A stretch of DNA of 14,759 nucleotides from a virus: the UHGV virus genome UHGV-0181014. The stretch is one strand, 5' to 3'. Positions 55 to 11,907 of this stretch are shown in pieces. Under the pieces are notes generated by a model that was not told the DNA's origin, did not search any database, and saw only the letters and a program-made list of their open reading frames with translations. Position numbers and translations under genes: made by a program. Each line of letters begins with the position of its first letter. Within the stretch, counting starts at the first letter, position 1.

Positions 55-378
55 CCGCTTGTAAAACGCTGAGAACCGTACCATTGCTGGTGGTAGGTAC
101 TATTCATATGTATAAACAAACAGTGCTTTTTTAGCAAAATCTGCTCTATATACATCAATGACTTAGGCGATGGTTTCTCCCCATTCTATTTAAGTGGAAT
201 AACTCAAAGAATCTGTTAGTTTTTCAAGGCGTGATAAAAGTAACAGTATGAGTTTGCAGATAAAAAATTTAGGTGATTTTCGATCAATGTCATAGCTTGG
301 CACTTGGCCGAGTTTAAACTGCATGGGATAACCACACTTTAGCTGCTGTGTGATGGAGTCTCATAAAAGGTGATAATA

Positions 379-1479
379 ATGTGCAATGTTGACGATACAG
401 CTCCCGATACTCAACCACCTCTCGAACTAAGCCAGGATGTGCAGGCGCTGATCAACAACGGTTTGGACTTTCTGGATAAAGCCCGTGAAGAATTGGAAGC
501 ATCAAAGCCTAAGTTCTCCGTCGTCAGCTTCTGGACGGCAGTAGAGATTTTACTAAAAGTACCTCTTGCGCATGAACACTGGTCGTTGGTCTGCAGTCCA
601 AAGAAACCAATAAAAAAGCAGGACTACTTAGCTGGTGATTTTCAGTCTGTGACCTATGAAGAAACTCGTAGTAGGCTTAAGGATGTACTTGAAAAACCAC
701 TAGATAAGGAAACGGATAGTGCTTTTGATAAGGTCAGAAAGCACCGCAACCGCGTGGTTCATTTCTACCATCCAACTTTTACTGCAGATGAACAGCGCCA
801 GATACTCAAAGAACAAGCGGATGCTTGGTTTGCTCTGAACAGGTTATTAAGGGAAGAATGGAAAGTCATTTTTGGAGTCAAACATAATTGGACGCTTGCT
901 TTTGGTGAGACTCGATTAATTAGGGGAAATGAATTTTATGCCCAAGTGCGGCTTAATCAGGTTAAACCTGAATTAGAATCTCTTGCAGAAAAGGGCATGC
1001 TAATTGGTACTTGTAATGAGTGCCATCAGCGTTCGTTAGTAACGGACACTAAAATAATTGGTAATGAAAAACGTGAACTTGAAGTTACGCGATGTAAGGT
1101 TTGCACTAGTGTTTTACGGCAAATTAATCTAGTTTGTCCCGACTGTGGGGAAGTTCAATTGCTTCAGGAGGGGGATGATGTTTTTGAATGTAGACGCTGC
1201 AACTACGCTCGGAGTAGATATGATTTGCTAGATGAGGAAATATTCCATAGTGTGGATGAACAGCTTCTCTCTGCATTTCCTGCTGGATGTACCAACTGCA
1301 TGAACCCTGAAAGTGTATGCAAATTTGGCGAAGGCTATCTCTGTACTCGGTGTTTATCCTATTACACTGAAATTCAGCAATGTAATAGTTGCAACCACTT
1401 GAGCGATAGTGTTCCTGAATTTAGTCATATTCGAGGATGTGAATTTTGTGATGGCGACCAGCGTTATTTTGATGACTGA
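379..1479 (+). CDS. Hypothetical protein: N-terminal HEPN-like domain (R-x4-H motif) fused to four C-terminal CxxC...CxxC zinc-ribbon modules; candidate defence/toxin cargo gene
   Basis: Long ORF 370-1479; preferred ATG at 379 preceded by AAAGG (366-370). Motif RKHRNRVVH (DNA ~736-762) fits the Rx4-6H HEPN signature. C-terminal ~150 aa carry eight CxxC pairs (CNEC/CKVC, CPDC/CRRC, CTNC/CTRC, CNSC/CEFC). GC roughly 40 percent, lower than the prophage backbone. Function is inference only. Confidence 0.6.
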   Translation: MCNVDDTAPDTQPPLELSQDVQALINNGLDFLDKAREELEASKPKFSVVSFWTAVEILLKVPLAHEHWSLVCSPKKPIKKQDYLAGDFQSVTYEETRSRLKDVLEKPLDKETDSAFDKVRKHRNRVVHFYHPTFTADEQRQILKEQADAWFALNRLLREEWKVIFGVKHNWTLAFGETRLIRGNEFYAQVRLNQVKPELESLAEKGMLIGTCNECHQRSLVTDTKIIGNEKRELEVTRCKVCTSVLRQINLVCPDCGEVQLLQEGDDVFECRRCNYARSRYDLLDEEIFHSVDEQLLSAFPAGCTNCMNPESVCKFGEGYLCTRCLSYYTEIQQCNSCNHLSDSVPEFSHIRGCEFCDGDQRYFDD

Positions 1480-1639: not shown

Positions 1640-2818
1640 CTAACTAGCTTTAATTTCTCCATGAGGAACTACGACCCAATCGATATGATTTTGGGTATAG
1701 ATCTTTGTTGATTTCGCATCACTATGTGCCATTCGTCCTTGCGGATCGATACCCTGCTGATCGAAAAGATGCGCTGCCAGCGCTCTAATTTCATGAAAGG
1801 TTGGTCTTTCGTCCATCGATAGATGGTCGCATAAACCTAGCTTGTCACGCGTAGCTGAAAATGACCGACTCAAATAGTCCGGTGCAACTTGACTAGGGTG
1901 TGAAACCTCTTTGCTGCGTTTAATCTGCCGTTCAGGGATCCTGTGAACGACAAACGGACTGGCCACATTATCTCGGCTATCGTCTATTATCCGTTTCAAC
2001 TCTTCCCCAATCGGGATTGCAACGTGAGATGCCTCTTTTTTTTGCACTTTCTGCCTGTGGATGTAGAGAGTCCCATAAATACCGTTTTCTGGTTGCGCTA
2101 ACCATACGCACCCGCAGATACCGTCTTTTGGCTCTCTTATGGAGTAACGGATCCGTGAGACCTCCAATCGTGCGTGTGTTGTCTGCAATGCCAAATCCAT
2201 AGCGGTTCGTAACCATGGTTCGGCTGCGCGCCTGATGGCTTTAAAGTTATCAAGTGAAAGGCGCTGGCGCTTCTTCTCTTCTGTCCTACGCATTTTTTTA
2301 CGGGTTGCCGGGTTATCGAACATTAGTGATTCATCGACCGCATAGGAAAATAATTTTTTAAGAAAGCTGACTTTCCTGTTTTGTACGTTTGCTGATGCTT
2401 CGGCATGGTAGTGGTTTATATAGGCGTTCACATGCTCCAGCTCAATATCGCAAGCTGGTATGTTGATGAAGAATTCTTTTACCCTCAGAGCATCGTTGTT
2501 CCAATCGTCGAGTGTATTCTGTGAAGGGCGCTCATTCTCAATCGCCCGCTCCATAATATGATCTACGTGTTCAGCAAATGGTTTTGCTTCCCCAGTTACA
2601 CCGCCAGATTCACGGACAAGTATTTCTACTGAAGGTACATTTTCAGGTCTCATTCTTAGGTTGTATTCACGGGCTATAGCGATCGCTACAGCCCTGTCTT
2701 TACCAATATTCTTTTTTTTCCCAGTTATGAGCGTAAATTTATAAACGCCGCGATCTTTATCGAATATTAGATATTCGGGTAGATGGCGGTATTCTCTTTT
2801 TCTTGGCCTGGCTGCCAT
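1640..2818 (-). CDS. int: Lambda-family tyrosine integrase
   Basis: 392-aa ORF. N-terminus MAARPRKREYRHLPEYLIF...GKDRAVAIAIAREYN parallels lambda Int arm-binding N-terminus (MGRRRSHERRDLPPNLYIR...GRDRRIAITEA). C-terminus PTFHEIRALAAHLF...HSDAKSTKIYTQ parallels lambda Int PPTFHELRSLSARLY...HKSDTMASQY with the catalytic tyrosine. Lies next to the tRNA-derived att core and is preceded by xis. Confidence 0.9.
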   Translation of the reverse strand: MAARPRKREYRHLPEYLIFDKDRGVYKFTLITGKKKNIGKDRAVAIAIAREYNLRMRPENVPSVEILVRESGGVTGEAKPFAEHVDHIMERAIENERPSQNTLDDWNNDALRVKEFFINIPACDIELEHVNAYINHYHAEASANVQNRKVSFLKKLFSYAVDESLMFDNPATRKKMRRTEEKKRQRLSLDNFKAIRRAAEPWLRTAMDLALQTTHARLEVSRIRYSIREPKDGICGCVWLAQPENGIYGTLYIHRQKVQKKEASHVAIPIGEELKRIIDDSRDNVASPFVVHRIPERQIKRSKEVSHPSQVAPDYLSRSFSATRDKLGLCDHLSMDERPTFHEIRALAAHLFDQQGIDPQGRMAHSDAKSTKIYTQNHIDWVVVPHGEIKAS

Positions 2819-3119: not shown

Positions 3120-4358
3120 TTACTTTTTCATCACCTTTTCAGCAACACCAGCAATTGCCTCAAGTCCATCAAACATTGCTGGTATATTATTTTCATTGTT
3201 TTGTATTGGACTAAAAATAAGAGCATCAAAAGAGTCTAAAACTTTCTCAATAGCAATGTTATTTTTTCTTCTATATTCAACATACCCATCAATGAAAGCA
3301 CATAAGCTGAGCCTTAGATCAATCTGCATAAGTTGAGTTCTTAAAGCCTTCGCTTCTAAATATGAAAGTCTGAAAAAATAAATAATTGCCATCTCAATAG
3401 TAATAAATGGGAATAGAATGAAGATCGCTGAATAATCTTTAGGATATAAATCAGGGAAAGAAAAATGGATTATTACAGCAATCACAGGAGCAATGAATAC
3501 AGTCCCAAATAAATTTTTATAATTCATTTCAGTTGTAGAAAGCTCTTTCTCTTTTTTTTCTTTTATTATGTTAAAACCAGAGCTTAACCCAACAAAATTA
3601 TACTCTGATTTTAAATTTCTCACACGCTCCTCTAGTGCCTTAATTTCATCCCTTGATTCATCCACGTATTTTAAATTAGCATCTGCTTCTAGTTTTCCAT
3701 CTACAATAGCTTTTTTAATGTCATTATAATTATCAGATATTAATGATATGGATGCTTTAGTGTCTTTGTTAATTTTATCAATAGCCAAATCTAAGTTGCT
3801 AGAAATTTCATCGAGAAACTTCCGTTTGTTTTCGTCGAGGTCTGATATAAAGTTTCTAGCATCAGTTAGTTTGTTACTGTTTAGTAACCACTTCATAAGT
3901 GAAATAGGTAGTTTGTCTCGAATCCATGAAAATTGGTATTTACCTTCATTATCCTTGAAAGTGTTTTCTAATAATGTCAATTTGCTGTCTGTGATAAAGT
4001 TAGGCGTGATAATGGAACGAGTGCCTGTCCAATAATAGTACTCGTACAATACTCTTAACAAGGTTGACAAAAAATCAATCTTGTCTTTCTTGTAATCGTC
4101 AACTTGAAATTCCATGTGCAACAATATATTGTCTTGATTAAAACCTGTATTCTCATCTAAATGTTGTGGGTTGTTATTTATTATTGATATAAAAGTCGAC
4201 CATGCTGAGTCCAATGTAGTATAGAATAAAGATATGCTATTATCTTTCTTTTTGGCGGATTTCTTGGACATTTCTTCAAACCTAATAAGATCTCTACTAA
4301 TTATAGTATTTGTTTCCTTTATTGAATTAAGTATTTTATTATCGCTATATAGTCCCAT
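3120..4358 (-). CDS. Hypothetical AT-rich membrane-anchored protein (412 aa, two predicted C-terminal TM helices); candidate abortive-infection or superinfection-exclusion cargo gene
   Basis: Uninterrupted 412-codon ORF in a segment of roughly 30 percent GC, against ~50 percent or more in flanking phage genes. Hydrophobic stretches FGTVFIAPVIAVIIHFSF and AIFILFPFITIEMAIIYFF near the C-terminus; coiled-coil-like segment ESRDEIKALEERVRNLKSEY. AAAAAGG RBS before the ATG at 4358. No recognisable catalytic motif. Confidence 0.7.
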   Translation of the reverse strand: MGLYSDNKILNSIKETNTIISRDLIRFEEMSKKSAKKKDNSISLFYTTLDSAWSTFISIINNNPQHLDENTGFNQDNILLHMEFQVDDYKKDKIDFLSTLLRVLYEYYYWTGTRSIITPNFITDSKLTLLENTFKDNEGKYQFSWIRDKLPISLMKWLLNSNKLTDARNFISDLDENKRKFLDEISSNLDLAIDKINKDTKASISLISDNYNDIKKAIVDGKLEADANLKYVDESRDEIKALEERVRNLKSEYNFVGLSSGFNIIKEKKEKELSTTEMNYKNLFGTVFIAPVIAVIIHFSFPDLYPKDYSAIFILFPFITIEMAIIYFFRLSYLEAKALRTQLMQIDLRLSLCAFIDGYVEYRRKNNIAIEKVLDSFDALIFSPIQNNENNIPAMFDGLEAIAGVAEKVMKK

Positions 4359-6321: not shown

Positions 6322-6948
6322 TTAAAGCTCGTACTGAACGCCTTTGACAACGCCGATGATCAGGCAATTACCGTTAATTGAAATGTTTGGATAGCGTGGA
6401 TTTAAGGGAACTAAGAACTTTTGAGGCCCGTCGATGACAAGTTTTTTTACAGTAGCCTCGTTTGTCCCATCAAGCCTGGCTACGACTATCTTTCCATGAA
6501 GTGGCTCTGCATCTGGATCTACTATGACTGTTGCCCCTTCAGGGATTGTCGGGAGGCCATTAGGGTTTGTCATCGAATCACCTTTAACCTCCAATGCAAA
6601 GGAGCTATCCCCTATGCGGAGTGATGTCTCTATCCACTTATCTACTTCGCTGAAAACTTCTGCTGCTTTACATTCTGTAAACTGTCCAGCCTGAACCCAG
6701 GATATCACCGGAATCCTTCGCATCTTGGTTATCAGATTGCCTTCAAATTCAGTGCCATAAAGTATGTAATCAATTGATGTGTTGAAATACTTTGCAAGTT
6801 TCGCAAGTGACTCGCCTCCTGGCACATTAACGTCTTTTTCCCAATACCCAACCGCCACATCACTAACACCGCAGAACTTACCCAGTTCTTTCTGCGAGGT
6901 TTTGGTTATGCGCCTGAGAGCTTTGATGCGCTGACCGACAGTTTCCAT
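6322..6948 (-). CDS. CI-like prophage repressor (HTH_XRE N-terminal domain plus S24 LexA-like autopeptidase domain)
   Basis: 208-aa ORF. N-terminal HTH (QKELGKFCGVSDVAVGYWEKDVNVP), a probable Ala-Gly cleavage site (VQAGQF), and the S24 Ser/Lys dyad context (GDSM ... VKKL). Divergent from a Cro-like gene with operator palindromes between them. Confidence 0.85.
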   Translation of the reverse strand: METVGQRIKALRRITKTSQKELGKFCGVSDVAVGYWEKDVNVPGGESLAKLAKYFNTSIDYILYGTEFEGNLITKMRRIPVISWVQAGQFTECKAAEVFSEVDKWIETSLRIGDSSFALEVKGDSMTNPNGLPTIPEGATVIVDPDAEPLHGKIVVARLDGTNEATVKKLVIDGPQKFLVPLNPRYPNISINGNCLIIGVVKGVQYEL

Positions 6949-7050: not shown

Positions 7051-7278
7051 ATGACAACCGATGATATTGAAAACTACTTCGGCAGTACTGAGAAGGTTGC
7101 CGAATTTTTTGGAATCACAAGCGAGGCTGTTTACCAGTGGCGTAATAGAACTGGTCGCCTTATCCCAAAAGGGCGTGCAGCTGAAGCAGCATATCGAACC
7201 GGGGGGAAATTGGTTTTTCATCCCGACCTTTACGAAAAGCGTAGCGATGCTTCAGTAAAACTCAAACCACAGGAATAA
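7051..7278 (+). CDS. Cro-like small HTH regulator (Cro/YdaS-like)
   Basis: 75-aa ORF divergent from the repressor, strong AGGAGG RBS. Motif AEFFGITSEAVYQWRNRTGRLIP fits the Cro/YdaS-type HTH pattern. Confidence 0.75.
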   Translation: MTTDDIENYFGSTEKVAEFFGITSEAVYQWRNRTGRLIPKGRAAEAAYRTGGKLVFHPDLYEKRSDASVKLKPQE

Positions 7279-7288
7279 GGGGGGAGCT

Positions 7289-7840
7289 GTGGGTAACGAA
7301 CCTATTTGGAAAGTCGAACGTCAGCCAGCCTGGCTGGTGGCGGCGATAAAAAAAACGATCACCGATCTTCCTGGTGGTTATGCCGAGGCGGCGGAATGGT
7401 TGGGCGTGACAGAGAACGCATTGTTCAACCGCCTTCGTGTTGACGGCGACCAAATCTTCCCGCTGGGCTGGGCAATGGTTTTACAACGTGCTGGTGGTTC
7501 AACTCATATCGCTGATGCCGTTGCGCGCCATTCTCAGGGCGTATTTGTACCGCTGGCAGATGTTGATGATCTGGATAACGCCGATATCAACCAGCGCCTG
7601 ATGGAATCAATCGAATGGATAGGCCGTCATTCTAATTTTGTACGTAAAGCCACGGCTGATGGGGTGATTGACGCAGAGGAGCGCGCTCAGATTGAGGAAA
7701 ACAGCTATCAGGTGATCGCGAAGTTCCAGGAGCACGTAGCACTTCTTTATCGAGTTTTTTGTGTCGCTGAAAAGAGTGACGCCCGCGAGTGTGCAGCTCC
7801 GGGCGCCTTGGCGAACAACTCTTCGAGTATGGAGAAATAA
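7289..7840 (+). CDS. CII-like phage regulatory protein (183 aa)
   Basis: GTG-initiated ORF directly after the Cro-like gene, the canonical cII position. Sequence such as AAEWLGVTENALFNRLR and size are consistent with the phage CII/CP76-type regulator family as I recall it. Function by position plus weak motif recall. Confidence 0.55.
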   Translation: MGNEPIWKVERQPAWLVAAIKKTITDLPGGYAEAAEWLGVTENALFNRLRVDGDQIFPLGWAMVLQRAGGSTHIADAVARHSQGVFVPLADVDDLDNADINQRLMESIEWIGRHSNFVRKATADGVIDAEERAQIEENSYQVIAKFQEHVALLYRVFCVAEKSDARECAAPGALANNSSSMEK

Positions 7841-8012
7841 TCCGCATGAGCAGTTTAACGGCTTTTAACCGTCTACCGCAACTCAGGATGATCCCGGTTT
7901 CGGGTACTCCGTTGTTTCGGTATGAACGCAGATTATCAAACCGCTGGGTTCCGTGTAACCACAGTAGGGCGGTTTCAATTGTGGGGGTCTATAACCGGAG
8001 GGCAAAACGCCT

Positions 8013-8192
8013 GTGCGCGAACTTAACCGAAGGTTCAAAGACCACCGCGGAGTGTCTGTCCGTGTTATCCGCTGGGAGCCAGAAACACAGCGCGTTATCT
8101 ACCTGCGTGATGGCTACCCGCACGAATGCTTCAGCCCACTTGAGCATTTCAGGCAAAAGTTCAGGGAGATAACGGACGATCATGAGCACTAA
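8013..8192 (+). CDS. Putative small protein (59 aa, GTG start) overlapping the start of the replication gene
   Basis: Frame opens after TAA at 7992-7994. GTG at 8013 preceded by GGAGG (7996-8000, 12-nt spacing). The translation VRELNRRFKDHRGVSVRVIRWEPETQRVIYLRDGYPHECFSPLEHFRQKFREITDDHEH looks protein-like, whereas the overlapping 127-aa frame (7789-8172) is Ser/Ala/Thr/Arg-rich in this interval. It ends 10 nt into the next gene. Confidence 0.3.
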   Translation: MRELNRRFKDHRGVSVRVIRWEPETQRVIYLRDGYPHECFSPLEHFRQKFREITDDHEH

Positions 8193-9039
8193 ATTAACCG
8201 GCTACGTATGGGATGGTTGCGCGGCGTCGGGCATGAAGTTGTCTAGTGTCGCGATCATGGCGCGCCTTGCTGATTTCAGCAGCGATGAGGGGGTGTGCTG
8301 GCCGTCTATTGAAACTATCGCTCGCCAGCTTGGCGCAGGGACGAGCACTATCAGAACGGCAATCGCTAAGCTTGAAAAAGATGGCTGGCTCACGCGTACA
8401 CAGCGCCGTAATGGTAACCGTAATGCGTCGAACGTGTACCGCCTGAATGTGGCGAAACTTCAGGCTGCCGCATTTTCTCAACTGTCAGATTCTGACGCGT
8501 CAAAACCTGACGCATCAAATTTTGACACCTCAAAAACTGACCCGTCGAAATCTGGCAAAAACGGCGGTTTTGACCCGTCAGAATCTGGCGGGGATCCGTC
8601 AGTAAAATCAAAACAAGATCCACAAGTAACTTCAAAACCCTCTTGTCCGGTTGCGGCGCAACCAGACCCTGAAGTCGTGATTACTGACCAGGCAATTTTG
8701 GTTCTGACCCATTTGAACCAGATAAGCGGATCCCGGTATCAGAAATCAAAAACATCCCTGGAGAACATCCGTGCCCGACTGCGTGAGGGATACAGCGTTG
8801 CAGACCTGCAACTTGTTATCGACCTGAAGCATGAACACTGGCACGAGAACGACGAGCAGTACCAGTACATGCGCCCGGAAACGCTGTTCGGCCCGAAGAA
8901 ATTCGAGAGCTATCTGCAAAGCGCTACCCGCTGGGAGCAGAAGGGACGGCCTAAACGCGCTGACTGGGGAGCGAAAAAGCGCGATGTGATGGCTTTTGGT
9001 CCGGTTGAAACAACGATTCCAGAGGGGTTCAGAGGATGA
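8182..9039 (+). CDS. Replication initiator (O-like): N-terminal winged-helix/HTH domain, acidic Ser/Asp linker, conserved phage C-terminal domain
   Basis: 285-aa ORF. N-terminal LSSVAIMARLADFSSDEGVCWPSIETIARQLGAGTSTIRTAIAKLEKDGWL is a typical HTH replication-protein fold signature. The C-terminal ILVLTHLNQISGSRYQ...LVIDLKHEHWHENDEQYQYMRPETLFGPKKFESYL resembles the conserved phage C-terminal domain of replication proteins. Contains tandem iterons; the true start may be 8182 or the internal ATG at 8233. Confidence 0.75.
   Translation: MSTKLTGYVWDGCAASGMKLSSVAIMARLADFSSDEGVCWPSIETIARQLGAGTSTIRTAIAKLEKDGWLTRTQRRNGNRNASNVYRLNVAKLQAAAFSQLSDSDASKPDASNFDTSKTDPSKSGKNGGFDPSESGGDPSVKSKQDPQVTSKPSCPVAAQPDPEVVITDQAILVLTHLNQISGSRYQKSKTSLENIRARLREGYSVADLQLVIDLKHEHWHENDEQYQYMRPETLFGPKKFESYLQSATRWEQKGRPKRADWGAKKRDVMAFGPVETTIPEGFRG
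8478..8640. repeat. Origin-like iteron array inside the replication gene, followed by an A-rich tract
   Basis: Tandem 15-bp units: TGACGCGTCAAAACC (8493-8507), TGACGCATCAAATTT (8508-8522), TGACACCTCAAAAAC (8523-8537), TGACCCGTCGAAATC (8538-8552), TGACCCGTCAGAATC (8571-8585), plus degenerate copies at 8478-8492 and 8586-8600. TGACGCGTCA is itself palindromic. The array is followed by an A-rich stretch (8601-8640), analogous to ori-lambda within gene O. Confidence 0.6.
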
Positions 9040-9917
9040 CGTTAAACAAATATTGCCAGGCGCTGGCGGCACTGCGCAGCAAGCCAGCCCACGAACTGAA
9101 AGAGGTTGGCGATCAGTGGCGGACACCGGATCTGCTTTTTTGGGGTATCAACGCGCTATTTGGTCCATTAGTTCTGGACTTGTTTGCTGACGACGACAAC
9201 GCGAAGTGCCCGGCATGGTACACCGCCGAAGATAACGCGCTGACACAGAACTGGTCTGAACGTCTGGATGAACTGGGCGGCGCGGCTTTTGCCAATCCTC
9301 CATATAGCCGCTCCCAGTATCACGACAAGCAGGCGATCACGGGTATGACACACATCATGAATCACACCATGGACATGCGTGAAAGAGGTGGTCGCTATAT
9401 TTACCTGGTGAAGTCTGCCACAAGTGAAACATGGTGGCCGGAAGATGCCGATCACATCATGTTTATTCGTGGTCGTATTGGGTTCGATCTGCCTGTGTGG
9501 TTTGTACCTGCTGACGAAAAACAGAAACCCACCAGCGCGTTTTTTGCCGGTGCCATAGCTGTATTCGATAAGTCGTGGCGGGGTGAGCAGTTCAGCTATA
9601 TCAACCGCACAGAACTGGAGGAAAAAGGGCGGGCATTTATGGCTTTGGCTCAATTCGCCGTTGGTAAAGAGCAAACAATTGCAATGCAGGCAGCCAGGGA
9701 ACCAGCAGCAACACCGGAAACTGAGTCACGAATCTGGCCTCTCGAGGTTGGTCTGGTGTTTAACCAGGTGGAAGGCGTTGATGTATTGAGCGAGGCCCAG
9801 CAGAACAAACTGAAAGCCAACATCAATCAACTCTGGCTGGAACGAACGGCCACCAGCGAAATTATCACAATTGCGCGTGGTCTTGTTGGCAGCATGCAGG
9901 GGGCAACCCATGCGTGA
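9036..9917 (+). CDS. Phage-type DNA N6-adenine methyltransferase (Dam-like, orphan)
   Basis: 293-aa ORF with the catalytic NPPY motif (FANPPYS) and the N-terminal QWRTPDLLF...LVLDLFADDDNAKCPAWYT signature characteristic of phage N6-adenine methyltransferases. ATGA start/stop overlap with the replication gene. Confidence 0.85.
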   Translation: MTLNKYCQALAALRSKPAHELKEVGDQWRTPDLLFWGINALFGPLVLDLFADDDNAKCPAWYTAEDNALTQNWSERLDELGGAAFANPPYSRSQYHDKQAITGMTHIMNHTMDMRERGGRYIYLVKSATSETWWPEDADHIMFIRGRIGFDLPVWFVPADEKQKPTSAFFAGAIAVFDKSWRGEQFSYINRTELEEKGRAFMALAQFAVGKEQTIAMQAAREPAATPETESRIWPLEVGLVFNQVEGVDVLSEAQQNKLKANINQLWLERTATSEIITIARGLVGSMQGATHA

Positions 9918-11907
9918 GATTATCGTTGATAACTTTGCTGGTGGCGGTGGTGCATCAACGGGTATTGAACTGGCGATCGGACGCAGCGTGGATATTGCGA
10001 TCAACCACGACGAAAACGCCATTGCGATGCACAAGACGAACCACCCTGACACACTGCATTACTGTGAATCCGTATTTGACGTGGATCCGGTAGCCGCCAC
10101 CGGCGGCAATCCTGTTGGCCTGGCATGGTTTAGCCCGGACTGCCGACACTTCTCAAAGGCCAAAGGCGCAAAGCCTGTCAAAAAAGAGATACGCGGTCTG
10201 GCCTGGATTGTTCTGCGTTGGGCACTGGCTAAGCGACCGCGCGTGATGATGCTGGAGAACGTGGAAGAGTTCAAAACGTGGGGACCGTTAATTGACATCC
10301 CGCCTAAACCTGATTTGCCGGAAGCCCTTATGGCGGATTTTATTGGCCCGGTTTACCCTGGAAATAGTCGCCCAGACCCTGCCCGCACTGGAGAAACATT
10401 CAATGCATTTGTCGGCATGCTGTCCACTGGTATTCCTGCTGACCACCCGGCACTGTCAGAGGTTTGTGAGTTTCTGTCTATTGAAAGAGGTAGCGAGCAG
10501 GCGCAACAGCTGGTGGATGGGCTTGGATATGATGTTGATTATCGCGAACTGCGCGCGTGTGATTACGGAGCACCGACGATCCGCAAACGTTTCTTCATGG
10601 TTATGCGCTGCGATGGTTTCCCTATTCAGTGGCCTGCTGTTACCCATGGGGATCCTAAGTCTCTGGAGGTGCAGAGCGGCAGGCTGATGCCATGGCGTAC
10701 CGCTGCGGAATGTATCGACTGGAATGTTCCGGCCCTGTCCATCTTCGACCGCAAAAAACCATTGGCTGAAAATACGCTCAAACGCATCGCTCGTGGTATC
10801 CAGCGGTTTGTGATCGAGAGCGCGTCGCCGTTCATCGTTAAGTGCAACCACACGACGACCAAAGGGAAATACGACTGTTTCCGTGGTCAGGCGCTGGGCG
10901 AGCCTTTGCAGACCATTACGAAAACCCATGGCTACGCGATTGCCGTCCCACACCTGACAAAGTTCCGTACTGGCGCAACCGGGCAGCCCGTTACCGAACC
11001 CGTCCCGACGGTAACCGCTGGCACATCAAAACGTCCAGGTGGGAACGGGCATGCACTCGGGATTGTTGAGGCTGCACTGACGCCATTCCTGGCGGGTAAC
11101 GGTGGTAGTGAATACCAGGCGAAACCGCGCCCGCTGGATAAACCTGCTCATACCATTCTGAAGCAATCCCGCGCCTGTCTTGTTGCGCCAGTGATAGCCC
11201 GCCAGTTTGGGGCCAGCGTCGGCCACCGGGCAGACGAACCGAGCGCAACCATCACCGCTGGTGGTGGCGGTAAATCTCAACTGGTAACGCCTACGCTGAT
11301 CCAGATGGGTTATGGCGAACGACCTGGACAAGAACCGCGTGTGCTGCGGCTGGATAACCCGCTGGGGACCGTTACTGCAGGTGGAAATAAATTCGCGACG
11401 GTGACCGCGTTCCTGGCTAAACACTACGGCGGTAACTATACGGGACCGGGTGTCAGTATGGATGAACCCGCGCACTCAGTGACCACTGTCGACCATCATG
11501 CAGTAGTTGCCTCTCATCTGGTGAAACTGCGTGGAACATGCCGCGACGGGCAACGCCTTGATGTGCCAATGCCAACAATCACTGCTGGTGGCCAACACGT
11601 GGGTGAGGTACGCACATTTCTCGAGACGTATTGCGGGGAAAGTGACGATGAATGGCTGGTAACGATCGATGGGGTTAAATACCAGATCGTTGATATCGGA
11701 ATGCGCATGTTGCAGCCGCATGAACTCTACAAAGCGCAGGGCTTCCCGGATGGTTACGTTATTGATCAGGACTACCGTGGAAATCGCTATGCAAAAGATA
11801 AGCAGGTAGCCCGCTGCGGTAATGCGGTACCACCACCATTCGCCAGGGCGCTGGTGGAGGCAAATCTTCCGGAACTGTGTGCAGTGCAACAGCAGGAGGT
11901 GGCATGA
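9910..11907 (+). CDS. DNA cytosine-5 methyltransferase (large, 665 aa) with an expanded, internally repeated variable region
   Basis: Motif I FAGGGG (DNFAGGGGAS), catalytic Cys context SPDCRHFS, motif VI LENV, motif VIII IRKRFFMV, motif X GNAVPPP near the C-terminus. ATG at 9910 preceded by CAGGGGG and overlapping the Dam-like stop by 8 nt. The ~300-aa region between motifs VIII and X contains about seven repeats of a P-x-T-[IV]-T-A-G-G-like module. Confidence 0.85.
   Translation: MREIIVDNFAGGGGASTGIELAIGRSVDIAINHDENAIAMHKTNHPDTLHYCESVFDVDPVAATGGNPVGLAWFSPDCRHFSKAKGAKPVKKEIRGLAWIVLRWALAKRPRVMMLENVEEFKTWGPLIDIPPKPDLPEALMADFIGPVYPGNSRPDPARTGETFNAFVGMLSTGIPADHPALSEVCEFLSIERGSEQAQQLVDGLGYDVDYRELRACDYGAPTIRKRFFMVMRCDGFPIQWPAVTHGDPKSLEVQSGRLMPWRTAAECIDWNVPALSIFDRKKPLAENTLKRIARGIQRFVIESASPFIVKCNHTTTKGKYDCFRGQALGEPLQTITKTHGYAIAVPHLTKFRTGATGQPVTEPVPTVTAGTSKRPGGNGHALGIVEAALTPFLAGNGGSEYQAKPRPLDKPAHTILKQSRACLVAPVIARQFGASVGHRADEPSATITAGGGGKSQLVTPTLIQMGYGERPGQEPRVLRLDNPLGTVTAGGNKFATVTAFLAKHYGGNYTGPGVSMDEPAHSVTTVDHHAVVASHLVKLRGTCRDGQRLDVPMPTITAGGQHVGEVRTFLETYCGESDDEWLVTIDGVKYQIVDIGMRMLQPHELYKAQGFPDGYVIDQDYRGNRYAKDKQVARCGNAVPPPFARALVEANLPELCAVQQQEVA

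Follow-up and report, generated by a model that had tools for sequence, protein, structure and literature searches.

Two real, overlapping genes very probably occupy the interval between the YmfL-family regulator and the replication-initiator-like gene of this prophage region. Only the N-terminal domain of the first gene (the N-domain of ymfM) and the product of the second (a DUF4222 protein) appear to be conserved as proteins. The fuller interpretation is that the interval contains two separately initiated protein genes, nested out of frame, and that the second half of ymfM (its tail) serves as a conduit; this is considered likely. The overlap would then offer a clean natural example of selection that acts on the passage of ribosomes and not on a peptide. 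Each gene was already known by itself; the nesting of the two, the open but sequence-free tail and the ambiguity that surrounds SfiC appear to be undescribed.

The window and the two nested genes

The window (the whole stretch of 14,759 nucleotides that was analysed, from the virus genome UHGV-0181014) represents the immunity and early-right region of a prophage that is lambdoid and e14-like. Among annotated relatives, the nearest are prophages of E. coli (90% identity) and the Escherichia phages Eeyore, Flotzy and LLS (82%). The features relevant to the interval are the following.

1640-2818, minus strand: integrase
6322-6948, minus strand: S24-peptidase CI-type repressor
7051-7278: P22-Cro-like gene
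7289-7840, plus strand: YmfL family, CII(CP76)-like regulator (NCBIfam NF041471 phage_reg_YmfL, E=9e-56; Pfam Phage_CP76, E=1e-9)
7831-7837, plus strand: GGAGAAA, Shine-Dalgarno-like motif for the ymfM ATG (from the sequence)
7846-8172, plus strand: ymfM-family ORF, 108 codons plus TAA at 8170-8172 (PHROG 1170, BLASTP, position, openness)
7846-8025, plus strand: YmfM N-domain, residues 1 to ~60, predicted three strands plus a helix (dN/dS, AlphaFold2, hhalign, stand-alone versions)
7997-8002, plus strand: GGAGGG, Shine-Dalgarno-like motif for DUF4222, inside ymfM (purine-rich motif in nearly all lineages)
8013-8192, plus strand: DUF4222 gene, 59 aa, GTG start, TAA at 8190-8192, -1 frame relative to ymfM (PF13973, PHROG 1343, dN/dS)
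8026-8169, plus strand: YmfM tail, that is, the DUF4222 gene read in the +1 frame (pLDDT, dN/dS 2.3, stop avoidance, hydrophobic fraction)
8170-8172, plus strand: conserved ymfM stop TAA, formed by DUF4222 codon 54 (ATA) and base 1 of codon 55
8182-9039, plus strand: replication-initiator-like gene with HTH_36 and Phg_2220_C (Pfam matches)

The preliminary description of this DNA, made from the letters alone, had placed a long frame of 108 codons between the ATG at 7846 (with GGAGAAA ahead of it) and 8172. It had also noted a -1 frame, open from 7995, with a 59-aa product running from the GTG at 8013 to 8192. Both frames are borne out by the sequence. The Shine-Dalgarno of ymfM sits within the final codons of the upstream YmfL-family gene, and the TAA of that gene (7838-7840) falls between GGAGAAA and the ATG. 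The junction TGGAGAA-TAA-N5-ATG is common to nearly all relatives. The -1 frame opens after a TAA at 7992-7994, and the GTG at 8013 is the only start codon beyond 7995 in that frame. The DUF4222 gene is nested in the 3' half of ymfM and its end reaches 11 nt into the replication gene. The replication gene shares the frame of ymfM; its ATG (8182) comes 9 nt past the ymfM stop and 8 nt ahead of the DUF4222 stop.

The annotations of this arrangement conflict with each other. The K-12 record and several phage records call the long ORF only, while PGAP calls DUF4222 only and places it at the same position in the closest E. coli relative. PHROGs lists both products, as unrelated families, and in NCBIfam a model was found for neither of them.

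Downstream of the replication-initiator-like gene, the gene order is Dam and C5 methyltransferases, RusA and DUF968. The Dam-type N6-adenine methyltransferase (9036-9917) is followed by a 678-aa C5-cytosine methyltransferase ORF (9871-11907). Taken from its first possible start (TTG at 9871), the latter overlaps the Dam ORF by 47 nt, which is ordinary for this phage group. On the other side of the window, a 369-aa Cys-rich ORF (370-1479, plus strand) adjoins the integrase and corresponds to the PADLOC candidate defence family HEC-08 (E=9e-167); it has a DUF3644 N-terminal part and is without a Pfam match. A 412-aa ORF on the minus strand (3120-4358), located between xis and the early-left genes, lies in an island of 32% GC versus ~52% for the remaining window. 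It has neither a Pfam nor a PADLOC match and resembles a moron or accessory gene.

The interval itself was also scanned for an antisense RNA like oop of lambda. One weak promoter-like site was found (1.0 in shuffles), together with no terminators and no Rfam match. With no promoter excess, terminator or Rfam match, the possibility that an oop-like antisense RNA, or a terminator, separates the CII-like gene from the replication gene was rejected. The minus strand also holds a 66-aa antisense ORF (7989-8189) whose codons are precisely in register with those of DUF4222; K-12, ST64B and yong2 have similar antisense ORFs. This has the look of an ordinary 'shadow' ORF, as such a frame gains stops only at sense-strand TTA, CTA or TCA.

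Conservation of the N-domain, DUF4222 and the overlap

The comparative set was gathered via DUF4222 similarity alone, from genome contigs, IMG/VR and annotated records. It contains 112 loci, which reduce to 102 unique region sequences and span Citrobacter, Kluyvera, Enterobacter, Escherichia, Pantoea, Mixta and Phytobacter. All 102 of these homologous regions contain both frames.

The 59-aa product matches Pfam PF13973 with E=3.2e-16 (59.1 bits, where the curated cut-off is 27; residues 4-53 on positions 5-52 of the 53-position profile) and PHROG 1343 with E=2.4e-33. Its homologues in the database number 108 and are distributed across the Enterobacterales. They share the conserved core VIRWEPETQRVIYLRxGYxHECFSPL, in which WEPETxRVIYLR...ECF is invariant. 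The protein is predicted to form a five-stranded SH3/KOW/Tudor-like barrel (AlphaFold2, pLDDT 85). In structural comparison the model reached a TM of ~0.65 with Spt5 KOW domains; because only generic SH3/KOW/Tudor barrels were matched, and these with weak E-values, the fold does not reveal a function.

The gene also seems to have start signals of its own. The start codon is ATG in 67, GTG in 30 and TTG in 4 of the 102 sequences, and nearly every lineage has a purine-rich, Shine-Dalgarno-like motif 6-11 nt upstream, of which the Pantoea/Mixta group carries a weaker form (CTGGGG). In one IMG/VR relative (L046) the start codon is replaced by GCG, probably through decay or an assembly artefact. 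As judged from the family matches and the predicted fold, the ORF at 8013-8192 is a genuine DUF4222 gene that has a Shine-Dalgarno and start of its own. Neither the DUF4222 entries nor the searched literature were found to note that most lambdoid members lie inside another ORF, and papers that address the function of DUF4222 or treat the two frames separately were not found in that literature either.

For the long frame, the match to PHROG 1170 (E=9.4e-17) covers residues 1-107, and the product is 40% identical to YmfM of K-12 (BLASTP, E=4e-15). The homology to YmfM of e14 (b1148) includes the non-overlapped N-terminal part. When the N-domains of the window type and the e14 type were compared alone, hhalign returned a profile-profile probability of 97.8% (E=7.6e-13). 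The position corresponds as well: as in e14 of K-12, the gene follows ymfL and precedes the replication gene in the rightward early operon.

Codons 1 to ~56 of ymfM (7846-8012) have a dN/dS of 0.25 in their own frame and of 0.87 and 1.29 in the other two (73 window-type sequences). For the e14-type N-domain the corresponding values are 0.42, 0.79 and 1.29. AlphaFold2 models residues ~10-60 of YmfM with a pLDDT of ~92, placing strands at 13-17, 24-30 and 33-37 and a helix from residue 39 onwards, and predicts residues 69-108 to be disordered (pLDDT <50). A PDB fold search with this model gave no significant match. Codons 1 to ~56 are, on these rates and this model, a small folded domain under purifying selection and form the conserved unit of ymfM.

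The N-domain is also encountered without the tail. An exhaustive phmmer search found stand-alone N-domain proteins of 53-66 aa in 14 of 25 cluster representatives. In Yersinia phage YeP1 the 53-aa N-domain ORF stops where DUF4222 begins, and in Hafnia phage yong2 the N-domain gene (59 aa) and DUF4222 are ~850 nt apart. Citrobacter phage phiNP has the order N-domain, rha, stand-alone DUF4222. In Providencia phage PSTRCR_117lys a 63-aa N-domain lies directly ahead of O and DUF4222 is missing. Since the N-domain stands alone in such lineages, the tail is evidently dispensable there. N-domain types and DUF4222 variants have moreover been reassorted among relatives. Judging by these arrangements, the N-domain and DUF4222 are independent modules.

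In the overlap, dN/dS is 0.11-0.13 for the DUF4222 frame, 2.3 for the ymfM frame and 2.1 for the third frame. The nucleotide diversity at DUF4222 codon positions 1, 2 and 3 amounts to 0.13, 0.09 and 0.38, respectively. The ymfM frame was not seen to place any added constraint on the synonymous sites of DUF4222 (pS 0.46 versus 0.28 in the N-domain). From the undepressed pS and the dN/dS of 2.3 it follows that no amino-acid constraint beyond that of DUF4222 can be measured for the ymfM frame in the overlap. By these substitution patterns, the second half of ymfM is an overprinted +1 reading of DUF4222 whose amino-acid sequence is free to drift.

These results also settle what the preliminary description had left undecided. 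It had proposed an alignment across related prophages; in the 102 unique relatives, amino-acid conservation in the overlap belongs to the DUF4222 frame only, and conservation of the 7846 frame alone along its full length, which it had named as the opposing case, is not what is found. Its impression that the 59-aa product is protein-like agrees with the Pfam family, the dN/dS of 0.11 and the confident beta-barrel model. The composition typical of out-of-frame reading past ~8013 is likewise real, as the residues after ~56 consist for 54% of Ser, Thr, Ala and Gly. This part of the long frame is indeed unconserved in amino-acid sequence, but the frame is kept open and has a conserved stop just before the next gene. 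Of its three readings, the closest is that of a small regulatory gene accompanied by a separate short peptide, and those of a frameshifted or decayed gene and of chance ORFs have to be dropped. The observation is confirmed: both frames are real, and neither is a chance ORF or a decayed gene.

The open tail and the junction with the next gene

Across the overlap the ymfM frame is open in 102 of 102 unique sequences (95-116 aa), and the third frame is always closed. When DUF4222 was recoded with synonymous codons drawn from the flanking genes, the +1 frame was open in 2-8% of the trials, corresponding to a P(open) of 0.02-0.08 per sequence. The codons themselves reveal how stops are avoided. Leu and Val codons that precede an A (alignment columns 4, 18 and 28) are xTT or xTC only and never xTG or xTA, and GTG, CTG and ATA are common in DUF4222 columns that precede a C or T. 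Inside columns 14-15, 16-17 and 19-20, the codon choice covaries with the next base.

Every synonymous change in DUF4222 that would create a stop is a transversion, which lowers the neutral expectation of stops in the tail. A very conservative count was made on this class of changes: for at least 26 synonymous transversions, 4.4 stop-creating ones were expected and 0 were observed (P~0.01, the most conservative phylogeny-aware bound for these 102 related sequences). The idea that any DUF4222 gene is intrinsically open in its +1 frame was rejected, because the stand-alone copies do carry stops in that frame (many in phiNP and two in CharmingMan). In addition, the hydrophobic fraction of the tail is 17-21% versus the 30-33% expected for open recodings, which places it in the lowest 0.1-3% of the trials.

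Comparison of the codons shows that selection keeps the tail frame free of stops, apparently through a context-dependent choice of synonymous codons in DUF4222, and that it fixes the stop of the frame 3-18 nt ahead of the next in-frame ATG. On the same comparisons, real translation of the tail, with selection as the cause of its openness, is held with good confidence.

The end of the tail is equally regular. DUF4222 codon 54 is ATA in 74, TTA in 24 and GTA in 3 of the 102 sequences, with A or G always as the next base, and a TAA or TAG of the ymfM frame is found at the same alignment column in 101 of them. Elsewhere in DUF4222, Ile is mostly encoded by ATC. The distance from the ymfM stop to the next ATG is 9 nt in 96 of the 102 sequences, 3 nt in five and 18 nt in one, and this ATG is always in frame. 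The spacing is kept across at least six downstream gene types, and the length of DUF4222 varies from 57 to 86 aa. With 9 nt between the upstream stop and the downstream start, the two are close enough in the window for translational coupling.

There is no ymfM-frame stop in ST64B, SfV and phage 2H10, nor in E. coli prophages that are very common. Here, the frame continues directly into an Ash/Rha antirepressor ORF of ~280-400 codons. In Stx1 and Stx2 phages, a +1 ORF that begins 17 nt before DUF4222 also runs into the antirepressor ORF. The continuous +1 frames of ST64B, SfV, the Stx1/Stx2 phages and the common E. coli prophages are located at L115 1358-2515, L117 1622-2773, L118 1641-2789, L122 1152-1988 and L123/L124 1284 onward. 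As the same +1 frame through DUF4222 feeds into the Ash/Rha/Ant ORFs, the annotated starts of these genes in Stx, ST64B and SfV phages are unreliable; between records they differ by up to ~90 codons. Hafnia phage yong2 (L113) holds a distant DUF4222 copy (2001-2186, 49% identity) that is overlapped in the +1 frame by an 'Ash family protein' ORF (2005-2688). The 5' end of this ORF overlaps DUF4222, its ATG comes directly after the stop of the upstream gene, and it has no YmfM N-domain.

In the proposed mechanism, ribosomes that initiate at ymfM would cross DUF4222 and terminate beside the start of the replication gene, where termination-reinitiation could couple the two genes. In the sister lineages without the stop, they would instead continue into the Ash/Rha antirepressor ORF. 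The tail would be translated mainly as a conduit and its composition would be kept benign. Because only the openness, hydrophilicity and stop position of the tail are conserved, selection would act on translation through the region and not on the peptide.

It is plausible that downstream coupling is the reason for the open tail, at a probability somewhat short of even. Some of the downstream genes have a reasonable Shine-Dalgarno of their own, so coupling may not be needed. Recombination where two modules meet, and not selection for coupling, may account for part of the conservation of the junction GATCATGAG, and in the window the DUF4222 stop overlaps the next start as well, which provides an alternative coupling partner.

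The main rival explanation is that the tail is kept open since it is functional within YmfM, for example as a disordered degron, linker or interaction region. Its composition departs from that of open synonymous recodings (lower hydrophobicity and more Ser, Thr, Ala and Gly), by which selection appears to act on the tail product. The tail length is fixed, with the stop at one column in 101 of 102 sequences, and proteolysis controls other division inhibitors, SulA among them. However, a functional segment fits poorly with the lack of any amino-acid conservation in the tail (dN/dS 2.3), with its absence from about half of the N-domain family representatives and with the sister lineages, whose frame continues into the unrelated Ash/Rha protein. 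A role within YmfM is hence judged unlikely, yet it deserves more weight than the other rivals. Alternatively, only the N-domain ORF and DUF4222 might matter, with an openness of the tail that is functionless and was inherited from a recent ancestor by inertia or hitch-hiking. The relatedness of the sequences, the need for transversions to create a stop and the unconstrained tail sequence would all agree with this. Yet the synonymous sites of DUF4222 are near saturation (pS 0.46) and still 0 stops occur in 102 sequences; codon choice covaries with the following base, rare codons maintain the stop in three amino-acid states, and stand-alone DUF4222 genes do have +1 stops. Inherited openness is for these reasons considered improbable.

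A programmed -1 ribosomal frameshift, fusing the N-domain to DUF4222 in a protein of ~115 aa, would make use of the fact that the DUF4222 frame is the -1 frame and is open from 7995, inside ymfM. An A-rich run, GCAAAAC, is indeed present at 8002-8008, just past GGAGGG. The window does not contain an X XXY YYZ heptamer, though, and the junctions differ between lineages (GGGCAAAAC, GGAGACAGTCC, GGAGAAAGT). DUF4222 has its own Shine-Dalgarno-like motif and an ATG, GTG or TTG in 101 of 102 sequences, the N-domain and DUF4222 also occur as separate and even distant genes, and a frameshift leaves unexplained why the zero frame is open up to its conserved stop. The fusion was rejected on the basis of these start signals, the missing conserved slippery heptamer and the separate occurrence of the domains, and is left with a very slight probability. 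Two proteins (P0127 and P0137) in which the N-domain is joined to the DUF4222 C-terminus in one frame were rejected as natural fusions as well; they are internal-deletion variants, probably decay or assembly artefacts. Least probable of all, to the point of being negligible, is the reading of the interval as a gene that was frameshifted or has decayed, or as intergenic DNA with chance ORFs. The odd composition in the second half of the long frame and the fact that the long ORF is without a match in Pfam had made this conceivable. It is contradicted by purifying selection on both segments, each in the appropriate frame, by an architecture kept in more than 100 sequences with both parts confidently modelled, and by the want of a terminator, promoter excess or Rfam match in the interval.

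E. coli K-12 e14 and other known systems

The arrangement of the window is also found in E. coli K-12 MG1655. A 59-aa DUF4222 ORF (NC_000913.3 1204001-1204180; L004 5002-5181) is nested there inside ymfM (L004 4823-5161). It has a TTG start preceded by the Shine-Dalgarno AGGAGA, and its protein is 78% identical to that of the window. The ORF is unannotated, as the curated record lists ymfM only. The two K-12 frames correspond to different peptides, namely WEPETQR and EGYEHECFSPLEQFR for DUF4222 and HNGLSTSAK and VMSMNASAR for the ymfM tail.

The ymfM gene of e14 has been reported as the SOS-inducible 'cell division inhibitor YmfM', SfiC (Ansari et al., bioRxiv 10.1101/2020.11.19.390815). By that paper's own account, the SfiC protein had been sought for some 35 years. 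A block of the FtsZ ring and filamentation were reported for the e14 ymfM DNA segment alone and were not assigned to either frame; the annotated ymfM ORF was cloned into pBAD24, ymfM was also deleted, and an earlier library clone, D1-8E, carried ymfL 142-185, ymfM and ymfN 1-92 (bioRxiv 10.1101/2020.11.19.390815). Frame-specific mutants are not described in the preprint (bioRxiv 10.1101/2020.11.19.390815). The final version in J. Bacteriol. may add such controls. If the insert of pBAD-ymfM is the exact annotated ORF, it includes the Shine-Dalgarno and TTG start of DUF4222 as well as its codons 1-53, and with these the entire Pfam domain. Clone D1-8E carries the complete DUF4222 ORF, and a deletion of ymfM would take out most of DUF4222 as well. 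Since these constructs carry ymfM together with all or most of DUF4222, the published work on the division block cannot tell YmfM from DUF4222. It is possible, though rather doubtful, that the SOS-inducible division block of e14 (SfiC), which was assigned to 'YmfM' in 2020-21, derives wholly or partly from the nested DUF4222, with the ymfM tail as only a translated conduit from ymfM to the replication or antirepressor gene. If true, the widespread DUF4222 family would represent division inhibitors or early regulators of a new, phage-encoded class.

Compared to its e14 counterpart (b1148), ymfM of the window holds the same position in the order cro - ymfL - ymfM - replication gene and has a similar length (108 versus 112 aa). 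The nested DUF4222 ORF and the 9-nt gap from stop to ATG are shared as well. The N-domain of the window, however, is a divergent sequence type that is ~33-40% identical to that of e14.

The junction resembles the termination-reinitiation systems of tightly packed phage and bacterial operons, in that 3-18 nt separate the ymfM stop from the ATG that follows, for various downstream genes. Unlike in those systems, the ymfM ORF must traverse an entire other gene to get there, and the dependence of the downstream gene is putative here. Embedded, out-of-frame gene pairs are known from other phages, such as Rz/Rz1 of lambda, D/E of phiX174 and the lysis gene of MS2. These share with ymfM and DUF4222 the near-complete nesting and frames that are asymmetrically constrained, as in overprinting. 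In these pairs, however, both overlapping segments are functional sequence, whereas the ymfM tail is without amino-acid conservation.
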